Part shown: one piece after another, positions 45,451 through 64,000 of the stretch
How the letters are laid out: every line of letters starts with the position of its first letter
Position numbering within the stretch: position 1 is the first letter of the stretch
Source: an uncultured Acidimicrobiia bacterium
GTDB lineage: Bacteria > Actinomycetota > Acidimicrobiia > Spongiisociales > UBA5794
Direction: 5' to 3'
Assembly: GCA_963834375.1 (NCBI GenBank)
Contig: CAWIBM010000002.1
Coordinates: 972,919-1,036,918 of the forward strand
Length of the DNA stretch: 64,000 nucleotides
Notes under the pieces: model-generated
Told to the model about the DNA's origin: nothing
Database searches by the model: none
What the model saw: only the letters and a program-made list of their open reading frames with translations
Program-made: the position numbers and the translations under genes

Positions 45451-48318
45451 GTGGCCGGCAGTCGGGGCGTAGAAGACAGGAAACCTCGTAACCTGCCCGC
45501 CGTGCTCGTCGAGAGGGACCGGCAACTCGACCAGATGGCCGCGGTTGCCGGTCAGGCCGGAGACGGCCGCGGCGGCGTCGTGCTGGTGAGTGGCGAAGCC
45601 GGGATCGGCAAGACGACCGTGGTCAACGAGTTCCTGGCTCGCCACCGCGGAGCGGTCGTCCTGTGGGGGTCCTGCGAGGACCTGGCCACCCCACGCACGT
45701 TCGGTCCGTTGCACGACATGGCGCGGCATGATCCAGGCCTTCTCGCCGCCTTGCGCGACGGGAGCCACCTCGACGTCTACGAGGCGTTGGTCGCCGCCCT
45801 GTCTCCTCCCACCGGCCTGGCGGTGGCGGTGATCGAGGACGCCCACTGGGCCGACCAGGCAACCATCGATGCCATCCGCTACGTCGGGCGCCGCGCCGCC
45901 CACGGCCACGGCGTGCTGGTGGTCACCGCACGCACCGAGGCGTTGGTGGGAGATCATCCGCTCCGCCTTGCGTTCGGTGGGATCCCGCCGGGCTCGGTGG
46001 TGAGGATCGAGCTGCCGGCGCTGACCCGAGAAGGCGTGGTGGCGCTGGCGGGCGACCACCCGGTCGACGAGGTGCTCGCCATCACCGGCGGCAATCCCTT
46101 CTTCGTGACCGAACTACTCGACAGCGGCCTCGACCTGCCGCGCAGCGTGGTCGACTCGACCCTGGCTCGGGCGGCGGACCTGTCGCCGTCGACCCGGGAC
46201 GTGCTCTCCGTGGTCGCCGTGGTACCTGGCGAGACGGAGCGGACGATGGTCGACGCCCTCGAGCTCGATCTCCCGGCTGCCCTGGCCGAGGCAGAGCCTG
46301 CGGGGCTCATCCTCACCACGACCACGGCGATCCGGTTTCGCCATGAGCTGGCGCGCCGGGCCTACGAGGCGTCGCTGGCCTCCGACCGTCGCCGTGACGA
46401 GAACCGGCGGGTGTTCACCCACCTCGAGGGCACCGACGCCGATCCCGCCCGGCTCGTCCACCACGCCGAGCAGGCCGGGATGCTCGACGGGGTCGCCCGC
46501 TGGGCGCCGGTGGCGGGACGTGAGGCGGCGGCCGTCGGCGCCCATAGGCAAGCGGTTGAGCACCTGCAACGCGCCGGCATCGTCCTCGATCGCTACCCGC
46601 TGGAGGAGCAGGCGTCCCTGCTCGAGCTCCTGACGTGGGAGCTATACGTCCTGGGTCGGTTCGGCGCCGCCCGCCATCCGTCGGAGCGGGCGGTCGCCAT
46701 CAGGGAGCAGCTCGGGGAACCCGCCGCCAGAGGCAACGCCCTCCGGCTCCTGTCGAGGGTCCACTGGGTACGCGGCGAGCGTCACGAGGCCGACCGGCGT
46801 GCCGAGGAGGCGATCGCCGTTCTCGAGCCGCTGGGTGAGAGCCGGGATCTCGCCATGGCCTACTCGACCCGTTCCCAGCTGGCGATGCTCAGCGCCGAGG
46901 ACGAGGAGGCGATCCGCTGGGGCACCGTCGCCGTCGACATGGGACGGCGCGTTGGTGACCCACAGGCGCTCACCCACGCCCTCAACAACGTGGGGACGGC
47001 GCAGGCGCACCAAACCGATTCCGCGGAGGGGATCGAGCTCATCGTGCAGGCTCGCCGCATGGCGATCGACAACGGGCTGGACGAGGACGCCGTCCGGGCG
47101 TGGACCAACGAGGTGTGGAGCCTGCTCCGGTCCCACCGCAATCAGGAGACCGGCCCGCTTCTGGAAGAGGCGATCGGATTCGCCCACGACCGGCAGCAGG
47201 ACGGGTTCGAGGCCTACCTGACCGCCACCCGCTCGATGCACCGGCTCGCCGTCGGTGACTGGGACGGAGCCGAGTCCGACGTTCTCTGGGTCCTCCAGCA
47301 GCCCGCGGTGTCCGGGACCAGCGACTTTCCGGCGGCGAGCACCTGGGGCACCCTGCTCGCCCGACGTGGGGAGTTCGCCGAGGCCCGGGACGTCCTCGAC
47401 GCCGGCTGGGAACGGGCCGTCGAGACCCTCGAGCTGCAGCGGACCCTTCCGATCGCCACCGGGATCGCCGAGCTGGCGTGGCTCGAGGGGCGTCCCCTGG
47501 ATGGCATGTATGCGTTCAGCCAGATCTCCGACGACCTCGCCGCTCGAGGCACCTCATGGGAGCGGGCGGAGGTGGCGATGCTCCAGCGGCGGGCCGGGCT
47601 CGAGACCCCGGCTCCCCTCGACGTGCCGGAGCCGTACCGGCACTGGTTCGACGGCGACCACCGGGCGGCGGCGGAGGCGTGGCGCAGCATCGGCGAGCCG
47701 TATGCCGCCGCCTCCGCCCTGGCCGACTCGGGCGGGATCCAGGACCTCGAAGAGGCGGTCGAGGTCATGGAACGACTGGGTGCGGTGGCGGCGGCCGCTC
47801 GCGCCGCCGCCGATCTGGAGCAGGCGAAGGCGCGACGTCGCCGGCTCGCCACGGTGCTGTTCACCGACGTTGTCGGGTCGACCGAGATGGCGGCTCGGAT
47901 GGGAGACGACTCATGGCGCCGGTTGCTCGACGAGCACGACGCCACCACCGCCCGGGTGGTGGCACGCCACGGGGGCCGGGTGGTGAGCGGGACCGGCGAC
48001 GGTGCGATGGCGAGCTTCGAGTCCCCGTCATCGGCCATCGACGCCGCCGTGGAGCTGGTCCGGGAGCTATCCGGCGCCGGGGTCACCATCCGCGCCGGTC
48101 TCCACACCGGGGAGGTCGTTCCCCGCGGCGACGACATCGGTGGGATGGCGGTGCACATCGCCGCTCGCGTCGGGGCGGAGGCGGGTGCGGGCCAGGTGCT
48201 GGTGTCCAGCACCACCCGCGACCTGGTGGTGGGCGGCGCTCGGACCCTGACCGACGTGGGCACTCGCCGGCTCAAGGGCGTGGCCGACGAGTGGCTCCTC
48301 TACGAGGTGTCCGGCTGA
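45451..48318 (+). CDS. STAND-type P-loop ATPase / TPR-like helical array / C-terminal class III nucleotidyl cyclase (CHD) fusion
   Basis: Intact 955 aa. Walker A 'GEAGIGKTT', Walker B 'LAVAVIEDAHWAD', a long helical-repeat middle, and C-terminal 'LATVLFTDVVGSTE...GTGDGAMASF...IAARV...LKG'. Confidence 0.8.
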   Translation: MAGSRGVEDRKPRNLPAVLVERDRQLDQMAAVAGQAGDGRGGVVLVSGEAGIGKTTVVNEFLARHRGAVVLWGSCEDLATPRTFGPLHDMARHDPGLLAALRDGSHLDVYEALVAALSPPTGLAVAVIEDAHWADQATIDAIRYVGRRAAHGHGVLVVTARTEALVGDHPLRLAFGGIPPGSVVRIELPALTREGVVALAGDHPVDEVLAITGGNPFFVTELLDSGLDLPRSVVDSTLARAADLSPSTRDVLSVVAVVPGETERTMVDALELDLPAALAEAEPAGLILTTTTAIRFRHELARRAYEASLASDRRRDENRRVFTHLEGTDADPARLVHHAEQAGMLDGVARWAPVAGREAAAVGAHRQAVEHLQRAGIVLDRYPLEEQASLLELLTWELYVLGRFGAARHPSERAVAIREQLGEPAARGNALRLLSRVHWVRGERHEADRRAEEAIAVLEPLGESRDLAMAYSTRSQLAMLSAEDEEAIRWGTVAVDMGRRVGDPQALTHALNNVGTAQAHQTDSAEGIELIVQARRMAIDNGLDEDAVRAWTNEVWSLLRSHRNQETGPLLEEAIGFAHDRQQDGFEAYLTATRSMHRLAVGDWDGAESDVLWVLQQPAVSGTSDFPAASTWGTLLARRGEFAEARDVLDAGWERAVETLELQRTLPIATGIAELAWLEGRPLDGMYAFSQISDDLAARGTSWERAEVAMLQRRAGLETPAPLDVPEPYRHWFDGDHRAAAEAWRSIGEPYAAASALADSGGIQDLEEAVEVMERLGAVAAAARAAADLEQAKARRRRLATVLFTDVVGSTEMAARMGDDSWRRLLDEHDATTARVVARHGGRVVSGTGDGAMASFESPSSAIDAAVELVRELSGAGVTIRAGLHTGEVVPRGDDIGGMAVHIAARVGAEAGAGQVLVSSTTRDLVVGGARTLTDVGTRRLKGVADEWLLYEVSG

Positions 48319-51791: not shown

Positions 51792-52697
51792 TTGTTGGTG
51801 GACTACACCGACCGCGTGGCCGTGATCACCGGTGCCGGTGGCGGGCTTGGCCGCGAGCATGCTCTCCTGCTGGCTTCCTTGGGGGCCGCCGTGGTCGTCA
51901 ACGACGCCGGCGGCGACGTCCACGGAGCCGGTTCGGCAGTCGGGGCAGCGCAGGTCGTGGTCGATGAGATAGCCGCAGCCGGAGGCGTCGCCGTCGCCGA
52001 CGACCACTCCGTCGCCGACCCTGAAGGGGCGTCGGCGATCATCGAGCGGGCGGTCGCGGAGTTCGGGCGGGTCGACGTGGTGGTCAACAACGCCGGCATC
52101 CTGCGCGACAAGTCCTTCGCCAACCTGACCTGGCCCGATCTCGATGCCGTCATCGACGTGCACCTCAAGGGCGCCTTCCTCGTGACCCGGCCCGCCTTCC
52201 TCCACATGAAGGAGCAGGGGTACGGTCGCGTCGTGCTCACGTCGAGCGGCTCCGGGATCCTGGGCAACTTCGGCCAGTCCAACTACGGGGCCGCCAAGAT
52301 GGGCCTGGTCGGCATGATGAACGTGCTCAAGCTCGAGGGGGCGAGGTACGGGATCAACGTCAACGCGGTGGCACCCATCGCCGCCACCCGGATGACCGCC
52401 GACCTCCTCGGTGACTCGGCCTCACGGTTCCCCCCGTCCCAGGTGGCGCCGGCGGTCGCCTTCCTCGGCTCGGAGGCGTGCACCTTCACCGGCGAGGTCT
52501 GGTCGGTCGGTGGCGGGTCGGTGAGCCGTTTCTTCACCGGGCTCACCCCGGGGTGGTTCAAGCACCCGGACCGGGGTCCGATCACCGTCGACGAAGTCGT
52601 CGCCAACCTCGACCTCATCCGCGCCGAGTCGGGATACGCCGTGCCGTACTCGTCGGCCGACGAGTTCGTCAAGCTGGAGGCGCTCTTCAGTGGCTGA
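51792..52697 (+). CDS. SDR-family oxidoreductase
   Basis: 'VAVITGAGGGLGREHA', 'NNAGILRD', 'SSGSGILGNFGQSNYGAAKMG'. Confidence 0.85.
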   Translation: MLVDYTDRVAVITGAGGGLGREHALLLASLGAAVVVNDAGGDVHGAGSAVGAAQVVVDEIAAAGGVAVADDHSVADPEGASAIIERAVAEFGRVDVVVNNAGILRDKSFANLTWPDLDAVIDVHLKGAFLVTRPAFLHMKEQGYGRVVLTSSGSGILGNFGQSNYGAAKMGLVGMMNVLKLEGARYGINVNAVAPIAATRMTADLLGDSASRFPPSQVAPAVAFLGSEACTFTGEVWSVGGGSVSRFFTGLTPGWFKHPDRGPITVDEVVANLDLIRAESGYAVPYSSADEFVKLEALFSG

Positions 52698-53307
52698 CGA
52701 CCGGTCATCGATCGACGACACCGAAGGCTCGGTGATCCCGTTCGGCCCCGCCGCCGACAAGGCGGCGTGGCGGGCGTGGGCAAGGAGGGAGCGGGCAGGG
52801 CTCGACTGGGGATTCCTGTCCGAGGCGGTGCGCGCCGCCCTTCGCACATTCCCGCCGCTGCGACACAACGCCACCGTGCTCACCTACCTGCCCATGGACC
52901 AGGAGATCGACCTCGAACCGATGCTGGAGGGCGGGCTGCCGGTGCACTGGGTGGTCAGCCGGACCCCGGACGAGGGTCCGCTGACCATCCACGAGATCAC
53001 CCTGCCGTTGGAGTACAACCGCCTCGGGTTCCGTCAACCCAGGGAGAGCGCCCCATACGTCGACCCGCACAACGTCGACATCGTGCTCGTCCCGGGGCTC
53101 GCCTTCGACCTCTACGGCACCAGGCTCGGTCGGGGCCTCGGCTACTACGACGAGCTGCTGGGGCGGATGCGAGCCGGCACCGTTTTCGTCGGGGTCACGC
53201 CGGCGGCGCTGGTGGCCGACCGGCTGCCCTCCGACGACCACGACATCCCCGTCCACTGGCTGGCGTCCGACGAGGGCGTGGTCGGCGTGGCCAAGTCGGC
53301 CGGCTGA
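52690..53307 (+). CDS. 5-formyltetrahydrofolate cyclo-ligase
   Basis: 'DIVLVPGLAFDLYGTRLGRGLGYYDELL'. Confidence 0.8.
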   Translation: MADDRSSIDDTEGSVIPFGPAADKAAWRAWARRERAGLDWGFLSEAVRAALRTFPPLRHNATVLTYLPMDQEIDLEPMLEGGLPVHWVVSRTPDEGPLTIHEITLPLEYNRLGFRQPRESAPYVDPHNVDIVLVPGLAFDLYGTRLGRGLGYYDELLGRMRAGTVFVGVTPAALVADRLPSDDHDIPVHWLASDEGVVGVAKSAG

Positions 53308-55392: not shown

Positions 55393-56390
55393 TCATCCGC
55401 GCAATCCCACCACCGATGCCGGGTCGAGCCGTGCTTCGACCCTGCTGCCGACCGGGATGGGGGCGGCGGTGATGCCGACGAGCGTGGTGGCGCCCACGGC
55501 CACCGTCGTGTCCCAATGGCCACCCCGGTAGATCGACGCGGTCACTTCGGCTGAACCGTCCCGCGAGGGCTCGATGGTCACCCCGGTCACCGGGACGAGC
55601 ACGGTGGGGGCACCGCGGCCGAGGCCAGATGGGAGGAGGCCGGCCGTGATCAGCGATGCCGGGTCGAGCACGTTGGGATGGCCGAGGAGGCGGGCGACGA
55701 ACTCGGTGCCCGGGTCCTCCCACAGTCGCTGGGGCGTGCCCAGCGCCGCCACCCTGCCGGCACGGAGGATGCCGACCCGGTCGGCCATGGCGAACGCCTC
55801 CTCGTGGTCGTGGGTGACGTAGATGGCGGTGATGCCCAGCGCGGTGAACAGGGCGCGGGTCTCGGTGGCCAGCCGGTCGCGGAGCTCGCGGTCGAGCGAG
55901 CCAAGGGGCTCGTCGAGCATGACCATCCGCGGCGACGGCGCCAGGGTGCGGGCCAGCGCCACTCGCTGTTGCTCACCACCGCTCAGCCCCGGGATGCGGC
56001 GTTCCCCCAACCCGCTCAACCCGACCAGGTCGAGGACCTCGTCGACGCGGGCGGAGGCGCGCCCGGGTTCCCATCCCTGCATGCGCAGCCCGAAGGCGAC
56101 GTTCTCACCCACGGTGCGATGGGGGAAGAGGGCGTAGTCCTGGAACATGAGGCCGAACCGTCGCCGGTGCGGGGGAGTGACGGTGATGTCGATGCCGTCC
56201 CAGGCCACGGTGCCCCGGTGGGGCCGGTCGAGCCCGGCGATGATGCGAAGGGCCGTCGACTTGCCCGATCCCGACGGTCCCATGACGGCGAGGACCTCGC
56301 CGGTGGCGACGTCGAGGTCGACGTCGACCAGGGCGTCGACACTTCCGAAGCTGATGGCGAGGTCGCGGCAGGCGAGGCTCAGAAGTCGCC
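55393..56390 (-). CDS. ABC transporter ATP-binding protein (thiamine/Fe3+ importer type)
   Basis: 'AVMGPSGSGKST', 'LSGGEQQRVALARTL', 'MVMLDEPLGSLD'. The start is approximate. Confidence 0.8.
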
Positions 56391-58000
56391 ACCTCCCCCG
56401 GGACGGAACCGCTCGATGGCGATCACGGCGAGGGTGGTCAGTGCCATCAGCACCACGGCCAGTGCCATCGCCCGTCCTTCCAACACCTCGCCGGGCCGGG
56501 ACAGCAACCGGAAGATGGCAACCGGCAACGTCGGGGAGTCGGGGCGGGCGATGAAGCTGGTCGCCCCGAACTCGCCCAGCGAGACGGCGAAGGCGAACCC
56601 GGCTCCAACCGCCGCCGCCCGCGCCATCAACGGTCCGTCGACCTCGAGGAACACCCGGCCCGGCGAGGCGCCGAGCGTGGCGGCGGCGTCGCGGAGGCGC
56701 TGCTGGACCTGCCGTAGGACGGGCAGCGAACTGCGCACCACGAACGGGATCGCCACCAGGGCGTGGGCGATCGGGATCAGCCAGATCGACGTGCGCAGAT
56801 CGACCGGGGAGTCCAGGGCGATGAGGAAGCCGAACCCGAGCGGTCACCGCCGAGGCTCCGAGGGGGAGCATCACCAGCGTGTCGAGACCTTGACCGGCTC
56901 GGCGGCCGGCGGTCACCACCACCGACACCACGATCCCGATGACGACGGCGACGGCCGTCGCCAGCGCGGCGAACCGGAGCGAGTTGCCGATCGCCTCGCT
57001 GGGGGCGACGAACAGCCCCGAGGCGGTGTCCCGGGTCGCCAGCCCGGTGAAGTTGGCGATGCCGAAACCGTCGCCGACCTGGAAGGCCCGGGCCGTCAGC
57101 ATGGCGATGGGGAGACCGATGAGCAGCCCGGCAACGGCGAGGTTGCCGCCTACCAGCCACCACGCCTTCCCCCGCGGGCGGATCCGTCGGTCAGCGGGTT
57201 CGGCTCTCAGCTGGGTCGCCATCCGCTGCTGGATCCGGCCGTAGACCAGCAGGGCAACCGTCACCCCGACCAGTTGGACGACGGCGAGGGCCGCCGCCAC
57301 CCGCAGGTCGAGCAGTGCGGTCGCCTGCCGCCAGATCTCGACCTCGAGGGTGGCCAGCCCGATGCCGCCGAGGATCAGGATGATGCCGAAGGAGGTGAAG
57401 GTGAACAGGAACACGATCGACGCCGCCGAGGCGATTGCCGGGGTGAGCAGCGGAAGGGTGACCTCGACCAGGGTCCTCCACCGACCGGCGCCCAGCGTCT
57501 GCGACGCCTCCTCCATGCGGCGGTCCAGCTGCTCCCATGCGGTGCCCACGGTGCGCACCACCACCGCGTAGTTGGCGAACACATGGGCGAGGAGGATGGC
57601 GGGTACGGTCCGGCGCAGGTCGACCCCGAAGGGACCGCCGGGGCCGAGCAGGGCGACGAAGGCGCTCCCGGTGACCACGGTGGGGAGCACGAACGGCACC
57701 ACGGTCGCCGCCATCAGCAGGCGCCGCCCGGGGAAGTCGTAGCGGGCGAACACGTACGCCGCCGGAAGCCCGATCGCCAGCGTCAACGCCGTCGACGCCG
57801 TCGCCTGCCAGGTGGTGAACCAGACGATGCCGAGGAGCGACGGCCGTTGCAAGACGTCCAGCATCGGAGTGCCGCCACCCGAGGACTCGCCGGTGAGGGC
57901 GGTGGCGAATACCGTCACCATCGGGAAGACGAAGAAGTAGCCGAGGAAGGCGAGCGGGACTGCGGTGAGGGCCACCAGGCCCCAGGGTCGACGCCGCGTC
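56379..58000 (-). CDS. ABC transporter permease (two-module ThiP/FbpB-like), one apparent frameshift near 56800
   Basis: Twelve-TM permease with a duplicated 'EEASQTLGAGRWRTLVEVTLP' / 'RDAAATLGASPGRVFLEVDGP' EAA-loop pair. The GTG start overlaps the upstream stop (GTGA). Confidence 0.75.
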
Positions 58001-59057
58001 ACCGCATCAGGTCCGTCCACTCCTGGATCCACGCCTCCCGGTTGGCCTCGATGTCGCCCGGGGGCACCGTGAGCGGGTCGTCGACGCGGGCGGCGTGCTC
58101 CACGAAGACGTCCGGGAGGGTGGTGCCCTCCACCGCCGGGAACACGAACATGTTGAGCGGGATGTCCTCCTGGAAGGTCTCCGACAGCATGAAATCGACG
58201 AGCTGGCGGGCCGCCTCCTCGTGCTCCGTCCCGTCGAGGATCCCGACGAACTCGACCTGGCGGAAGCACCCCTCGGTCATCGACGCCGGTGGGCGCTTCC
58301 GCCGGTGGGACCTCGGCGAAGTACACCTCGGCCGGGGGAGAGCTGGCGTACGACACCACCAGCGGCCGGTCGCCGGTGTCGCTGGTCGGCGGTGAAGGCC
58401 CCGTTGTAGGCCTCCTCCCAACCCGAGGTCACCAGCACGTCGTTGGTGTCGAGCGCCTCCCACCAGTCCTGCCAACCGTCGACGCCGTACTGGGCGATGG
58501 TCCCGAGGAGGAAGGCGAGGCCCGGTGAAGAGGTCGCCGGGTCCTCGACGGCGAGCATGCCTCGGTAGGCAGGATCGATCAGGTCGTCGAGCGTCTCCGG
58601 TGGCGCGACCCTCGGCGGCGGCCAGGGCGGCGACGTCGTAGTTGACGCATACGTCCCCGTAGTCGATCGGGGTCACCCGGTGCTCCGGGTCGAGTTGCAG
58701 CTCCTCGGGGACGCCGTCGACGCCGGGGGCGTCGTAGGGGACGAAGAGGTCGGCGTCGAGGGCCCTGGTGAGAAAGGTGTTGTCCACTCCGAACAGGACG
58801 TCGGCCACGGGGTTGTCAGCGGTGAGGATCGCCTGGTTGAGCACCACGCCGGCGTCCCCACCGGATAGGAGCTCGACGGTGATCCCGGTTTCCGCGGTGA
58901 AGGCCTCCAGGACCTCGTCGGATACCAGGAAGGAGTCGTGGGCCATCAGGGTGATGGACACCGGCCCGCCGGTGGCATCTTCGCCACCGGCGCAGGCGGC
59001 GAACAGCAGGGCAGCGACCACGACCGACCCGACGAAGGCGCGCCCGATCCTCACGAC
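57999..59057 (-). CDS. ABC transporter substrate-binding lipoprotein (thiamine/Fe3+ family), several apparent frameshifts
   Basis: '[23 protein letters not shown]' is a lipobox signal. '[11 protein letters not shown]...' and the C-terminus '...[20 protein letters not shown]' lie in different frames. Confidence 0.65.
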
Positions 59058-60192: not shown

Positions 60193-60636
60193 GTGGACAC
60201 GAGGAGCATCATCAGCGGCATCGAAGCGGCGCTGGCCGACCAGCTCGCCCTCGCCGGTGGAGACCCGGTGGTTGCCGCCGCCGGCGAGGCCCTCGTCGCC
60301 GCCCTCCGCCCGGCGCTGAGCTCGGCGGTCATGGAGCTCGCCGAGCAGGCCGCCCTCGAGGTCGGTGCCCAGATTCCGGAGCACCAGGTCGAAGTCGTGC
60401 TCAGAGAGGGCGATCCGCACCTGGTGGTCCGCGCCGAGACCGGTGTCGAGTCGTTCAGTACCGAGGACCTCGATGCGCGGATGACCGTGCGCCTCCCGCC
60501 CCGCCTCAAGAGCGAGCTGGAGCTGGCCGCCCGGTCGGCCGGCGACTCGATCAACGCCTATGTCATTCGTGCCCTCGCCGCCAAGGGAACCAGCGCCAAG
60601 CCGGGCAAGCGGGTCACCGGGACCTTCGAGACGTGA
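60193..60636 (+). CDS. Ribbon-helix-helix (HicB-antitoxin-like C-terminus) domain protein
   Basis: The C-terminal 'RMTVRLPPRLKSELELAARSAGDSINAYVIRALAA' is a CopG/Arc/HicB-type RHH. The ~100-aa N-terminal domain has no recognised family. Intact 147 aa. Confidence 0.6.
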   Translation: MDTRSIISGIEAALADQLALAGGDPVVAAAGEALVAALRPALSSAVMELAEQAALEVGAQIPEHQVEVVLREGDPHLVVRAETGVESFSTEDLDARMTVRLPPRLKSELELAARSAGDSINAYVIRALAAKGTSAKPGKRVTGTFET

Positions 60637-61400
60637 GTGAGCGCAAGGAGCGGTTCGAGGTCGGCACCTCGGTTCGGATCGAGGCGGCCACCAGCTCCGG
60701 TGACATCAGCGCCCGACCCGGGGATGCCGGCGAGGTTCTGGTCACGGTCAAGGGCCCCGGCGCCGACGACTACCAGATCACCCAGCACGGTGACACCATC
60801 CGGGTACTCCCCGAGAACACCAGGGTGTTGCGCCGGTTCAGCACCGCCGAGGTCTTCCTCACCACACCACCGGGAGCTTCGCTGCACCTCACCGCCGCCA
60901 GCGGGGACATCTCCGTGCAGGCTCCCGCAGAGGACGTCGAAGCCACTGCGGCCTCCGGCGAGATCAGGGTCGGCTCGGTTTCGGGCGCCGGGCGGCTCCG
61001 CACCGCCTCCGGCGACATCCAGGTCGACTCCGTAGGCGGGCGCCTGTTCGTCGACAGCGCGTCGGGGGATGTACGGGTCGGCCGCGTCGGGAGCGACATG
61101 GCCGCCCACTCGGCGTCCGGCGACATCTCCGTCGACTACGCCGCCGGAGCGGTCGACGTCAACACCGCCAGCGGTGACCTCCAGGTTCTCCACGTCGACG
61201 GCGACGACGTCCGGGTCAAGACGGTCAGCGGCGACGTGCGGCTGGGGATCCCTCCCCGGCGGACACTGGAAGTCGAGGTGCAGACCCTGTCGGGGGATGT
61301 ACGCAACCGGCTCCCCACGGGGGATGGCTCGCCTCCAGAGAAGCGGGTCGTCCTCACCGTGAAGACCCTCTCCGGCGACATCACCCTCCACGGCATCTGA
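60633..61400 (+). CDS. DUF4097-family beta-strand repeat protein
   Basis: Intact 255 aa with ~10 repeats of 'SGDI.V' ('ASGDISVQA', 'ASGEIRVGS', 'ASGDIQVDS', 'ASGDVRVGR', 'VSGDVRLGI', 'LSGDITLHG'). Confidence 0.75.
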   Translation: MSERKERFEVGTSVRIEAATSSGDISARPGDAGEVLVTVKGPGADDYQITQHGDTIRVLPENTRVLRRFSTAEVFLTTPPGASLHLTAASGDISVQAPAEDVEATAASGEIRVGSVSGAGRLRTASGDIQVDSVGGRLFVDSASGDVRVGRVGSDMAAHSASGDISVDYAAGAVDVNTASGDLQVLHVDGDDVRVKTVSGDVRLGIPPRRTLEVEVQTLSGDVRNRLPTGDGSPPEKRVVLTVKTLSGDITLHGI

Positions 61401-61418: not shown

Positions 61419-62222
61419 TCAGCGCCGAGCGGCGAAGACGGCGGCGTAGGCGATATGGCCGAAGAACGTGCCGGTGTCGACCCGGCGGTGCGCTTCGGCC
61501 TTGAGCGCCCGCGCGGTGTCGTCACCGATGCGTCCGGCGCCGGCGAGCTGGTCCGCCCCGCGCTCGACCAGGGTCAGCATGTAGGCGGGCTCCGTTGACT
61601 CCACGTAGCCGTAGCTCCGGGAGGTGGTTGCCTCGAACCCGGCTTCGGTGACAAGGGTGGGAAGGCGTCGCACCAGCCAGCGGTCGTGCACCAGGTAGGC
61701 GACGATCGCCTCGACACAGGGTTGGAGCGGGTCGAAATCGCCGGTGGCGACGGTGGTGGTTGCGTAGTCGCCGTCGAACACCACGAGCACGCCGTCCCGA
61801 TCGAGCACCCGGTGTGCTTCGCGCAGCGCCCTCTCCGGGCCGGGGATGTGGCAGAGGGTGGTGTGGAACACCACGACGTCGAACGAACCGTCCTCGTACG
61901 GCAGCGCGCGGGCGTCGCCGACGTCGAACATCAGGTTGTCGAAGCCGGTGCTCAGCTCGCCGGCCTTGGCGACGAACGTCGGGGATGGGTCGACACCGGT
62001 GACCGCGGCCTCGGGAGCGTGCTCGGCGATCGCCCGGGAGACCGCCCCGGTACCGCTGCCCACCTCCAGCAGCCGGGCGCCGTCGCCCGGTGCCAGCTCG
62101 GCGAGGTACGAGTCACGCATCGCCTTCTGACGGGGATCGGCGGCGCGCAGCTCGAGGACTCGGGCCAGCTCCTCCAGCACCGCCTGGTCCGCCTCGGCGA
62201 TGGTGGCGTAGACGTCGGGCAT
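61419..62222 (-). CDS. Class I SAM-dependent methyltransferase
   Basis: 'LLEVGSGTGAVSRAIAE' (motif I) and 'FDVVVFHTTLCHIP'. Confidence 0.8.
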   Translation of the reverse strand: MPDVYATIAEADQAVLEELARVLELRAADPRQKAMRDSYLAELAPGDGARLLEVGSGTGAVSRAIAEHAPEAAVTGVDPSPTFVAKAGELSTGFDNLMFDVGDARALPYEDGSFDVVVFHTTLCHIPGPERALREAHRVLDRDGVLVVFDGDYATTTVATGDFDPLQPCVEAIVAYLVHDRWLVRRLPTLVTEAGFEATTSRSYGYVESTEPAYMLTLVERGADQLAGAGRIGDDTARALKAEAHRRVDTGTFFGHIAYAAVFAARR

Positions 62223-62317
62223 GGCGAGACACTCCAGGTCACGGGATCGCCAGGCTACGCCGCCAGTGGCGGATTGGAGTAGGTTTGCGGCCCGGTCGCA
62301 CCGGGGAGCTACAGCCC

Positions 62318-62779
62318 ATGGACATGCCGGACGACATGCGCGCCTACAACCGACAGGTCATCGAGGAGTTCCGCGCCAACGACGGGATTCTCGGACCCCC
62401 GTTCGCCGGCGACTCGACCCTGCTCCTGACCACGAAGGGAGCCAGGACGGGCCGGTCCCACACCGTCCCGATCATGTTCAAGGAGGACGGCGACCGCTTG
62501 CTGGTGATCGCCTCGGCCTCGGGGGCACCCCGCCATCCCGATTGGTACCGCAACCTCGTGGCGTATCCGGAGGTGGCCGTGGAACGCGGCGCCGACCGGT
62601 TCGACGCGGTTGCCCGTACCGCCGAGGGGGACGAGCGGGACCGCCTCTGGAATGAGCTGCTGGCGACCCATCCCTTCTTCGCCGATCACCAGGCCCAGGT
62701 GACCCGGCAGATCCCGCTGGTGCTCCTCGAGCGTCCCGGCAGGTCTCGCCGCCGCAGTGGGATTCCTGAACCCGAGTGA
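62318..62779 (+). CDS. Deazaflavin (F420H2)-dependent nitroreductase-family protein (Ddn-like)
   Basis: 'LLLTTKGARTGRSHTVPIMF...GDRLLVIASASGAPRHPDWYRNLVAYPEVAVE' is the Ddn/PNPOx-like split-barrel signature. Confidence 0.75.
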   Translation: MDMPDDMRAYNRQVIEEFRANDGILGPPFAGDSTLLLTTKGARTGRSHTVPIMFKEDGDRLLVIASASGAPRHPDWYRNLVAYPEVAVERGADRFDAVARTAEGDERDRLWNELLATHPFFADHQAQVTRQIPLVLLERPGRSRRRSGIPEPE

Positions 62780-63930
62780 GACTCATCGTCACCGCATTCG
62801 TGACACTCGACGGAGTCATCGAAGCTCCCGGGTTCGACGAACATCGGGATGGCAAGAACGCCTGGGCACTCCGGATTCAGAACGAGGACGATGAGGAGTA
62901 CAACACGGCGCAGGTCTTCGATGCCGATGCCTTCCTCCTCGGCCGGAAGACGTACCAGATCTGGGCCGCCTTCTGGCCACTCGCCGAGCAGGCCGACCTC
63001 ACCGCAACCGGTGCCGAGAAGCTCGCCAGGCGCGTCAACGAGATCCCGAAGTACGTCGTCTCGCGAACGTTGACCAGCGCCGATTGGAGCAACACCACCC
63101 TCATCGCCGGTGATGTCGCCGCTGAGGTCATCCGCCTGAAGGAACAGGGAGACGGTGACCTGGTGGTATACGGCAGCGCAGACCTCGTCGACACCTTGTT
63201 GGAGCAGGATCTCATCGACGAGTACCGCCTGCTCGTCTATCCGATCGTCCTGGGCAGCGGGAAGCACCTGTTCCGCGACGGGATCGACCTGCACCATCTG
63301 CGCCTGGTCGGCACACGGGTCTTCAGCTCCGGTGTCGTCCTGCTCACCTACCAGCCGCAGCGGGAAGTTCCAACAAGCCGATACGAGGTCGAATTCGCCT
63401 GGACCCAGGAGCAGGTGCGCTCGCTCCAGGCCGCCGAGGACTTGAACCGGGTCCTGGCCACCGTGTTGTTCACCGATCTGGTCGACTCCACCAAGCGGGC
63501 GGTCGATCTCGGTGACCGCGCCTGGCGTCGTCTCATCGACCGTCATGACGAGGTGGCGCGTTCCGAGGTGAGCCGTTGGACGGGCCGGTTCATCAAGAGC
63601 ACCGGAGACGGGGTGCTCGCCACATTCGACACGCCGACCAGGGCACTGCGCTGTGCCTTCGATCTGCGGCAAGCACTCGTTCGCATCGGGCTCGAGATGA
63701 GGGCGGCCATCCACACCGGCGAGATCGAGTTGCGCGACGACGACATCGGAGGCGTAGGCGTCCACGTCGCTGCCCGTGCCCTTGGGATGGCCGATGCGAA
63801 TGAGGTCGTGGTCACCCGCACGGTTCGGGATCTCGCCACCGGGACCGATCTGGGTTTCGCACCCAAAGGCTCGGTGAGCCTGCGCGGGATCCCCGGACGG
63901 TTCGAGTTGTTCGAGGCGTCACTCGGCTAG
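62776..63930 (+). CDS. Dihydrofolate-reductase-like (RibD C-terminal domain) / class III nucleotidyl cyclase (CHD) fusion protein
   Basis: Intact 384 aa. The N-terminal 'MRLIVTAFVTLDGVIEAPG...GRKTYQIWAAFWP...LVVYGSADLVDTLLEQDLIDEYRLLVYPIVLGSGKHLF' is DHFR-family. The C-terminal 'LATVLFTDLVDSTKRA...FIKSTGDGVLATF...VHVAARA...LRGIPGRFELFE' is a CHD. Confidence 0.8.
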   Translation: MRLIVTAFVTLDGVIEAPGFDEHRDGKNAWALRIQNEDDEEYNTAQVFDADAFLLGRKTYQIWAAFWPLAEQADLTATGAEKLARRVNEIPKYVVSRTLTSADWSNTTLIAGDVAAEVIRLKEQGDGDLVVYGSADLVDTLLEQDLIDEYRLLVYPIVLGSGKHLFRDGIDLHHLRLVGTRVFSSGVVLLTYQPQREVPTSRYEVEFAWTQEQVRSLQAAEDLNRVLATVLFTDLVDSTKRAVDLGDRAWRRLIDRHDEVARSEVSRWTGRFIKSTGDGVLATFDTPTRALRCAFDLRQALVRIGLEMRAAIHTGEIELRDDDIGGVGVHVAARALGMADANEVVVTRTVRDLATGTDLGFAPKGSVSLRGIPGRFELFEASLG

Positions 63931-64000
63931 ATCGGCGGTTCGCCCCGTCCGTCCGCGGTGCCGCGTCGCTCCTCAGCCCTGCTCGACATACCGGAGGAGT

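Follow-up and report, generated by a model that had tools for sequence, protein, structure and literature searches.

The 64,000-nucleotide stretch analysed here (hereafter, the window) is taken from contig CAWIBM010000002.1 of an uncultured Acidimicrobiia bacterium (assembly GCA_963834375.1; positions 972,919 to 1,036,918 of the forward strand). Close to its 3' end lies a gene for a 384-residue protein in which a RibD_C domain, related to dihydrofolate reductase (DHFR), is joined through a short linker to a class III nucleotide cyclase domain. An earlier note on this DNA, made from the sequence alone, had proposed just such a fusion within one gene, and both the intact open reading frame (ORF) and the existence of full-length homologues bear this out. 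Our reading, in which we have middling confidence, is that the fusion protein is an Rv1900c-type adenylyl cyclase, soluble and dimeric, with a regulatory domain that binds nicotinamide adenine dinucleotide phosphate (NADP(H)). The gene and its parts are as follows:

62776..63930, + strand: the RibD_C-cyclase fusion gene, 384 aa, with a GTG start and a TAG stop at 63928-63930 (ORF list and contig gene call)
62782..63342, + strand: RibD_C/DHFR-like domain, aa 3-189, of the YyaP/LiDHFRL subfamily (Pfam PF01872, E=1.7e-23)
63361..63444, + strand: interdomain linker, aa 196-223, 28 residues, free of indels in 119 sequences and with two short predicted helices
63445..63927, + strand: class III cyclase homology domain, aa 224-384, Rv1900c-like (1ybt, E=2e-41; Foldseek; NCBIfam LipJ)
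63475..63477, + strand: D234, the first metal-binding Asp (FTD motif), found in 119/119 members and aligned with Rv1900c and Ma1120
63595..63609, + strand: K274-S-T-G-D278, the specificity Lys and the second metal-binding Asp; K274 aligns with K101 of Ma1120 and, by counting along the 1ybt alignment, with N342 of Rv1900c
63742..63777, + strand: D323-I-G-G-V-G-V-H330-V-A-A-R334, the specificity Asp, the Asn position and the transition-state Arg (alignment)

The fusion ORF is continuous and shows no frameshift that would divide it into two genes: a homologue search among 5.8 billion proteins, from which the best 120 hits were taken (clusters at 90% identity), returned more than 100 homologues equal in length to the query and aligned with it end to end (100% coverage), and the full-length homologues are 65-95% identical to the fusion protein. 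A gene caller run independently on the source contig, a public contig that encodes the identical protein (ENA ERZ25039456 contig_68253), gave the identical call with the same start. Moreover, the third-position GC content of the gene is 0.82, which, in a sequence of 70% GC, fits a real gene. That a frameshift or an assembly error has artificially merged two neighbouring genes has next to no probability: not only is the frame continuous and the identical protein present on two independent contigs, but the same architecture recurs in more than 100 clusters of full-length homologues, which derive from different projects and assemblers.

At least 120 clusters contain the fusion; their members are 65-95% identical, have lengths of 364-423 aa save for a few fragments, and carry RibD_C in every case. 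The organisms named are Acidimicrobiia, other Actinomycetota and Candidatus Limnocylindria (Chloroflexota), and include metagenome-assembled genomes (MAGs); among the GTDB species representatives there are at least 10 full-length loci, every one of them in a MAG. In a library of representatives at 50% identity, the family comes down to one full-length representative (P0121; 64% identity) together with fragments. More distant RibD_C-cyclase fusions were also considered, but candidates matching in two stretches were tandem cyclase-cyclase proteins and the rest were fragments without a second domain. Judged from the sequences compared, the fusion proteins form one tight, well-conserved orthologous family, which is neither a singleton nor a diverse and ancient superfamily of architectures. 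Conservation was analysed over 119 sequences, namely, the window protein and those 118 of the 120 hits with lengths of 360-430 aa. Mean pairwise identity is 69% in the RibD_C half and 73% in the cyclase half; both domains are under similar constraint.

The description of the architecture as unusual does not hold in the sense of rare, given its presence in at least 120 clusters of public data and the existence of a label for it in the automatic annotation of JGI ('class 3 adenylate cyclase/dihydrofolate reductase'). The NCBI name, 'dihydrofolate reductase family protein', leaves the cyclase half unreported, probably because this half falls under the Pfam threshold in many members. The earlier note had professed not to know the architecture and, indeed, we found no description of it in the literature searched (RibD, DHFR and Pfam identifiers combined with cyclase terms). 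It is conserved and already auto-annotated, yet undescribed in that literature.

The N-terminal domain belongs to the DHFR family, as had been predicted: Pfam PF01872 (RibD_C) matches aa 3-189 with 83.9 bits, against a gathering cut-off of 24.1. The closest solved relatives of aa 2-201 are LiDHFRL of Leptospira interrogans (PDB code: 8jsv; E=7e-29) and YyaP of Bacillus subtilis (PDB code: 2gd9; E=9e-25), at 31-34% identity, and the corresponding Foldseek template modelling (TM) scores, normalised to the target, are 0.78-0.81 and 0.73-0.76, respectively; taken together, Foldseek and phmmer match this half to 8jsv, 2gd9, 3ky8, 3jtw and 1cz3. Both LiDHFRL and YyaP share the GRKT and G-G/S motifs of the fusion protein but, unlike it, stand alone, at about 190-200 aa, and lack a cyclase. 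LiDHFRL is said, in the title of a publication cited in PMC12751051, to be catalytically active. Two other assignments were rejected. A riboflavin-pathway RibD reductase would have scored far higher against TIGR01508 (13.4 bits; cut-off 186) and PRK14059 (12.9 bits; cut-off 184), and a canonical FolA DHFR finds no support in the Pfam and NCBIfam scans, which gave no DHFR family at E up to 0.1; the sole sequence link to canonical DHFR is a weak match to the Thermotoga maritima enzyme (E=0.056).

Across the family, the NADPH-type motifs T10-x-D12-G13, G56-R57-x-T59 and G133-S134 (the first two reading T10-L-D12-G13 and G56-R57-K58-T59 in the window protein) show little or no variation, and we take G56-R57-x-T59 and G133-S134 to be the equivalents of the DHFR cofactor motifs GRxT and GG. 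Also nearly invariant is a family-specific loop, E16-x-P-G-F-D-E-H-R-D-G-x-N-A-W-A-L-R33, the pocket loop reading APGFDEHRDGKNAW in the fusion protein as against APGGPEEDTSGGFKYGGW in LiDHFRL. Stand-alone RibD_C proteins that are ~46-49% identical to the N-terminal half do exist, and one of them, P0145, has the characteristic loop too (APGFEEHRTGRNGWA); all 20 columns that are invariant in the stand-alone relatives are kept in the RibD_C domain of the fusion. With its cofactor-type motifs retained, the N-terminal domain is likely to be functional. The same features would suit a bifunctional enzyme without signalling coupling, in which an NADPH-dependent reductase and an independent adenylyl cyclase have been joined for co-expression or co-localization: a domain that keeps both the residues invariant in its stand-alone relatives and the NADPH-type motifs is enzyme-like, rather than a degenerate pseudoenzyme, its closest solved relative, LiDHFRL, has the reported activity mentioned above, and the nearest cyclase relative, Rv1900c, is itself labelled 'bifunctional lipase/adenylate cyclase LipJ' by NCBIfam. 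We regard this explanation as somewhat doubtful, for reasons that emerge from the linker and the genomic context.

For the C-terminal half, the Pfam model Guanylate_cyc (PF00211) aligns with aa 229-374 at 17.5 bits and falls short of its 21.9-bit cut-off, such that only the RibD_C part of the domain prediction was upheld by Pfam, although many family members do pass the Guanylate_cyc threshold in precomputed annotation. The assignment as a class III cyclase, made in the earlier note, is nevertheless secure, because it is supported by family models, by homology to solved structures and by the overlay of the folds. The NCBIfam LipJ model (NF058673) matches aa 212-379 with 174.7 bits over profile positions 280-447, which are its cyclase part; the solved cyclase domain of Mycobacterium tuberculosis Rv1900c (PDB code: 1ybt) matches at E=2e-41 and Mycobacterium avium Ma1120 at about 1e-24; and the cyclase region of the AlphaFold2 model, where the per-residue confidence (pLDDT) is 76-95, superposes on 1ybt/1ybu with TM scores of 0.86-0.92 and root mean square deviations of 1.4-1.9 Å.

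Of the catalytic residues, D234, D278 and H330 are present in all 119 sequences and R334 in 118/119, whereas position 274 is Lys in 105/119 and Glu in 11/119, and position 323 is Asp in 106/119 and Gly in 13/119. D323 and H330 align with D157 and A164 of Ma1120, and H330 also with H402 of Rv1900c, the latter equivalence (like that of N342) being assigned by counting along the 1ybt alignment; in the alignment to both proteins, the specificity Asp sits seven residues ahead of the Asn position. Also recovered as first described were the FTD...ST and TGDG motifs, the Lys that is kept (K274, within FIKSTGDG) and the His at the catalytic Asn position (H330). However, the supposed non-canonical Met or Val at the specificity Asp was an error of register: the position is D323, with an Asp likewise in the second cyclase of the window, described below (DDIGGMAVH). 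By the alignments, the fusion protein has the canonical K-D specificity pair of adenylyl cyclases and a catalytic set that is complete for such an enzyme (D234, K274, D278, D323 and R334); the sole deviation is H330, which replaces the Asn of the transition-state Asn-Arg pair, R334 being present.

Substitution of this Asn has precedents. Ma1120, with the substrate pair K101 and D157, has A164 at the Asn position and is active (PMC4215837); Rv1900c is also an active cyclase, and its H402 has been described as negating the requirement for Asn (PMC4886424). Since active Rv1900c has His and Ma1120 has Ala, replacement of the Asn is tolerated in the closest relatives. This bears directly on whether the cyclase half is instead an inactive pseudo-cyclase, serving the reductase as a nucleotide-binding or interaction module. 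The His in place of the catalytic Asn and the sub-threshold Pfam score might be taken to suggest as much, but the former is found in an active homologue, and conservation extends to both metal-binding Asp residues, to the Arg and to the specificity pair, which also switches coherently within the family from K-D to E-G; we consider a pseudo-cyclase decidedly unlikely.

Among the 119 sequences, 105 have K-D as their specificity pair and 11 have E-G; Q-G, A-G and N-D occur once each. Guanylyl cyclases are characterized by Glu paired with Gly, Cys, Ser, Thr, His or Ala, and K-to-E and D-to-G-type changes increase the guanylyl-cyclase activity of Ma1120 (PMC4215837), such that these mutants parallel the natural E-G subclade of the fusion family. 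The E-G members (P0061, P0068, P0069, P0076, P0084, P0088, P0097, P0099, P0104, P0110 and P0119) are predicted bacterial guanylyl cyclases built on the same scaffold; the subgroup also takes in P0060 and P0100, and the genomic copies L011:4001-5122 and L012:4001-5128. Retention of a matched specificity pair is not expected of a dead domain, and the coherent switch from K-D to E-G suggests a functional cyclase with its nucleotide pocket under selection. In a neighbour-joining tree, the Gly323 sequences cluster together, and the switch may represent one event and not repeated covariation. The K-D and E-G sister groups constitute a ready pair for studying adenylyl- versus guanylyl-cyclase specificity on one scaffold.

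Two of these copies, both in Chloroflexia MAGs, have neighbours of some interest. Approximately 0.9 kb downstream of the E-G-type copy in L012 is a gene (L012:6014-7918, - strand) for a 635-aa pyridoxal phosphate-dependent decarboxylase with a cyclic-nucleotide-binding domain, which could be an effector, albeit in a single case. The copy in L011 has no stop after '...EASL' and continues in frame into a FAD-dependent (DAO-like, GxGxxG) oxidoreductase (L011:3035-6484, + strand), reflecting either a fusion of three domains or an error of sequencing; upstream, on the opposite strand, an ORF (L011:1501-4098, - strand) encodes what, judged by eye, is a membrane protein with an EAL-type domain.

The window contains two cyclase domains and one RibD_C domain in total. 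The second cyclase domain is in a protein of the STAND type:

47842..48279, + strand: C-terminal cyclase domain of the AAA_16 (STAND) protein whose gene occupies 45451-48318, Rv1900c-like and a paralogue of that in the fusion (Pfam)

In this protein (45451-48318, + strand; 955 aa), Pfam assigns aa 19-158 to AAA_16 and aa 798-943 to Guanylate_cyc; its gene is 15 kb from that of the fusion. The two cyclase domains share 44% identity over 158 aa (E=2e-43), in good agreement with the ~45% first estimated. Like the fusion protein, the STAND-cyclase belongs to the Rv1900c-like clade, carries His in place of the catalytic Asn and retains the specificity Asp and the Arg; in contrast, it has an N-terminal AAA_16 nucleoside triphosphatase (NTPase) domain and Ser in place of the specificity Lys, and it is not the nearest cyclase relative of the fusion. 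Identity between the fusion cyclase domain and those of other proteins from Mycobacterium, Bradyrhizobium and many MAGs is 51-57%, versus 44% between the window copies, which speaks against the lineage-specific expansion inferred in the earlier note and, instead, for an old, domain-shuffling Rv1900c-like clade with no recent local duplication. Within this clade, the partners of the cyclase domain include alpha/beta-hydrolases (P0189 and P0248), the AAA_16 NTPase of the window and second cyclase domains. In the mycobacterial Rv0386-type proteins, the domain order is opposite to that of the STAND-cyclase of the window.

Immediately upstream of the fusion gene is a gene on the same strand:

62318..62779, + strand: DDN-family F420H2-dependent quinone reductase gene (Pfam PF04075, E=1.5e-36; contig gene call)

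The end of this gene, with its TGA stop, and the beginning of the fusion gene, with its GTG start, have 4 bp in common (GTGA), implying co-transcription and translational coupling of the two. The pairing is otherwise kept only in a 92%-identical relative (L004), with a gap of 6 bp, and from 79-81% identity downwards the fusion gene has unrelated neighbours (TetR with hydrolases, MetE-like, PadR, mycothiol S-transferase and an ABC-type ATPase). All-against-all clustering of 16 loci, the contexts of five homologues and Pfam searches of the neighbours gave no shared neighbour family beyond close relatives, and the DDN-family gene was, therefore, rejected as a conserved operon partner: it is a local neighbour only, gone from the more distant loci. 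The absence of such a partner points to the fusion protein being a self-contained unit. It also tells against a bifunctional enzyme without coupling, in that no conserved metabolic-pathway neighbours hint at a substrate for the reductase.

No sites were found in a promoter/terminator scan of 61900-64000. The window is core chromosome (IF-2, S15, PNPase and Kup), and no defence-system signature was seen in it; a role as a Pycsar anti-phage cyclase was rejected, since there is only a partial PycC match of 17.5 bits, there is no adjacent effector and the neighbours are not conserved. Stand-alone RibD_C genes occur just upstream of the fusion in two MAGs (L006:3332-3940 and L014:1875-2489), but they are not mutual orthologues and do not form a conserved pair, and their adjacency is probably coincidental.

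A number of other features of the surroundings may be recorded. The locus directly upstream of the DDN-cyclase pair is the site of a recent insertion or deletion: a class I S-adenosylmethionine-dependent methyltransferase gene (61419-62222, - strand) is absent from the syntenic, 92%-identical L004, where there is a 46-aa ORF. Pairs of genes for HicB-like and DUF4097 ('toastrack') proteins flank the DDN-cyclase pair in opposite orientations (window 60193-61400, + strand; L086:6017-7155, - strand), one of which adjoins an ABC-2 exporter. Further upstream, within a cluster encoding thiamin pyrophosphokinase, a solute-binding protein, a permease and an ATPase, a 988-aa ORF (55393-58359, - strand) combines a BPD_transp_1 permease with an ABC_tran ATPase, which are encoded by separate genes in L004. 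Genes with HD_5/HD and GerE domains (HD-GYP-like phosphohydrolase; LuxR-type helix-turn-helix) are found 4-5 kb from the fusion in two unrelated contexts (L002:1-1279, - strand; L003:10190-11134, - strand). Folate-linked neighbours comprise a 5-formyltetrahydrofolate cyclo-ligase gene ~10 kb upstream of the fusion (52690-53307, + strand), MetH ~3.4 kb downstream of it in the close relative (L004:10508-13134, - strand) and a MetE-like gene that is the divergent neighbour of P0049 (L002:3824-4936, - strand); these are too sparse to serve as evidence of a folate link.

The closest characterized counterpart of the fusion protein is Rv1900c/LipJ (PDB codes: 1ybt and 1ybu), which has a homologous cyclase domain, including the segment just before it, with 42-44% identity in structural alignments. 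Both proteins are soluble, both carry an enzyme-like domain at the N-terminus and the cyclase at the C-terminus, and both have His at the Asn position; they differ in that the N-terminus of Rv1900c is an alpha/beta-hydrolase rather than a DHFR-like (RibD_C) domain, and in that the canonical K274 of the fusion is replaced by N342. The fusion protein was rejected as a LipJ orthologue, since it scores 174.7 bits against the 800-bit cut-off of NF058673 and has no hydrolase domain. Ma1120 (PDB code: 4wp9 and others; E=1e-24, 34-37% identity in structural alignments) shares the K-D pair and a residue other than Asn at the transition-state position (Ala versus His), but its solved chains, of 171-210 aa, have no DHFR-like part. 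Class III cyclases that are coupled to sensors include Rv1264, with a pH-sensing N-terminal domain, CyaB1 (GAF) and bPAC (BLUF). The fusion protein resembles them in general logic, having a putative sensory domain at the N-terminus, then a linker and a cyclase that would be dimeric, although in its case the coupling is hypothetical; Rv1264 is among the fold matches of the fusion model. We know of no sensor-coupled class III cyclase with a DHFR/RibD_C N-terminal module.

The linker is of constant length, without indels across the 119 sequences, and has a mean pairwise identity of 62%; it includes the conserved motif W209-T-x-E-Q-V-R-S-L-Q-A-A220, and AlphaFold2 places helices at 202-207 and 211-221. 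The match to the LipJ model begins at aa 212, i.e. inside the linker. A conserved linker of constant length, together with the strict co-conservation of both halves across two phyla, is more typical of coupled domains than of a reductase and a cyclase joined merely for co-expression or co-localization. In the regulated adenylyl cyclase that we favour, the cyclase domain would make cAMP from ATP as a head-to-tail homodimer, with the active sites at the dimer interface, as in the class III family generally. The YyaP/LiDHFRL-type domain would bind NADP(H), and possibly also a small heterocyclic ligand in the pocket of the E16-R33 loop, and the helical linker of fixed length would let the N-terminal domain determine how the two catalytic domains are placed with respect to each other, such that the cAMP output would report the state of a redox cofactor or metabolite. 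The dimerization, the NADP(H) binding, the allosteric coupling and the identity of the second ligand are all features that we infer.

Class III cyclases need dimerization, and it could be argued that the N-terminal domain is a dimerization or solubility scaffold only, the cyclase being constitutive and controlled by its expression. The YyaP entry (2gd9) has two chains, and, in this genome, the fusion gene is apparently co-transcribed and translationally coupled with the DDN-family gene, both of which are compatible with such an arrangement. However, the cyclase domains of Rv1900c and Ma1120 dimerize alone in crystals (1ybt and 4wp9), and near-invariant cofactor motifs and a pocket loop of 17 residues would be unexpected in a mere scaffold, making this explanation improbable.

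Signalling by the fusion protein in response to NADPH, folate or pterin, as envisaged from the start, would be plausible. More specifically, we tentatively propose that the N-terminal half is a genuine receptor for small molecules, with NADPH/NADP+ and/or a heterocycle of the pterin, folate or riboflavin/F420-precursor type as its ligand, and that it gates the cyclase allosterically. Apart from the low Pfam score and the clustering of the E-G sequences, already mentioned, several observations weigh against a regulated cyclase. The RibD_C subfamily was not seen fused to other signalling outputs among the homologue hits and fragments checked; the occurrence of other output domains would be the best bioinformatic sign of a sensor, and the sensor model is weakened accordingly. 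In the AlphaFold2 model (mean pLDDT of 79; predicted TM score of 0.49), the interdomain geometry is not confident, as judged by the latter value, and the putative ligand loop, aa 20-34, has a pLDDT below 50. Additionally, allosteric coupling draws no support from Rv1900c, the closest relative.

Class III cyclases are built from modules, and with every new N-terminal domain a further input to cAMP/cGMP signalling is defined. We found no description of a DHFR-fold input domain for these enzymes in the literature searched, and the fusion protein is best regarded as a class III cyclase whose input or partner domain is new; this reductase-like half may be a new kind of sensor. If the receptor proposal is correct, the DHFR-like domain would be the first sensor module for a redox cofactor or folate-type ligand to be described in a class III cyclase, and the E-G sister proteins would turn the same input into cGMP. 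Should an NADP(H)- or pterin-like ligand be bound, the central redox or one-carbon state would be linked to second-messenger output in the hosts of this family, which are abundant uncultured soil Actinomycetota and Chloroflexota.

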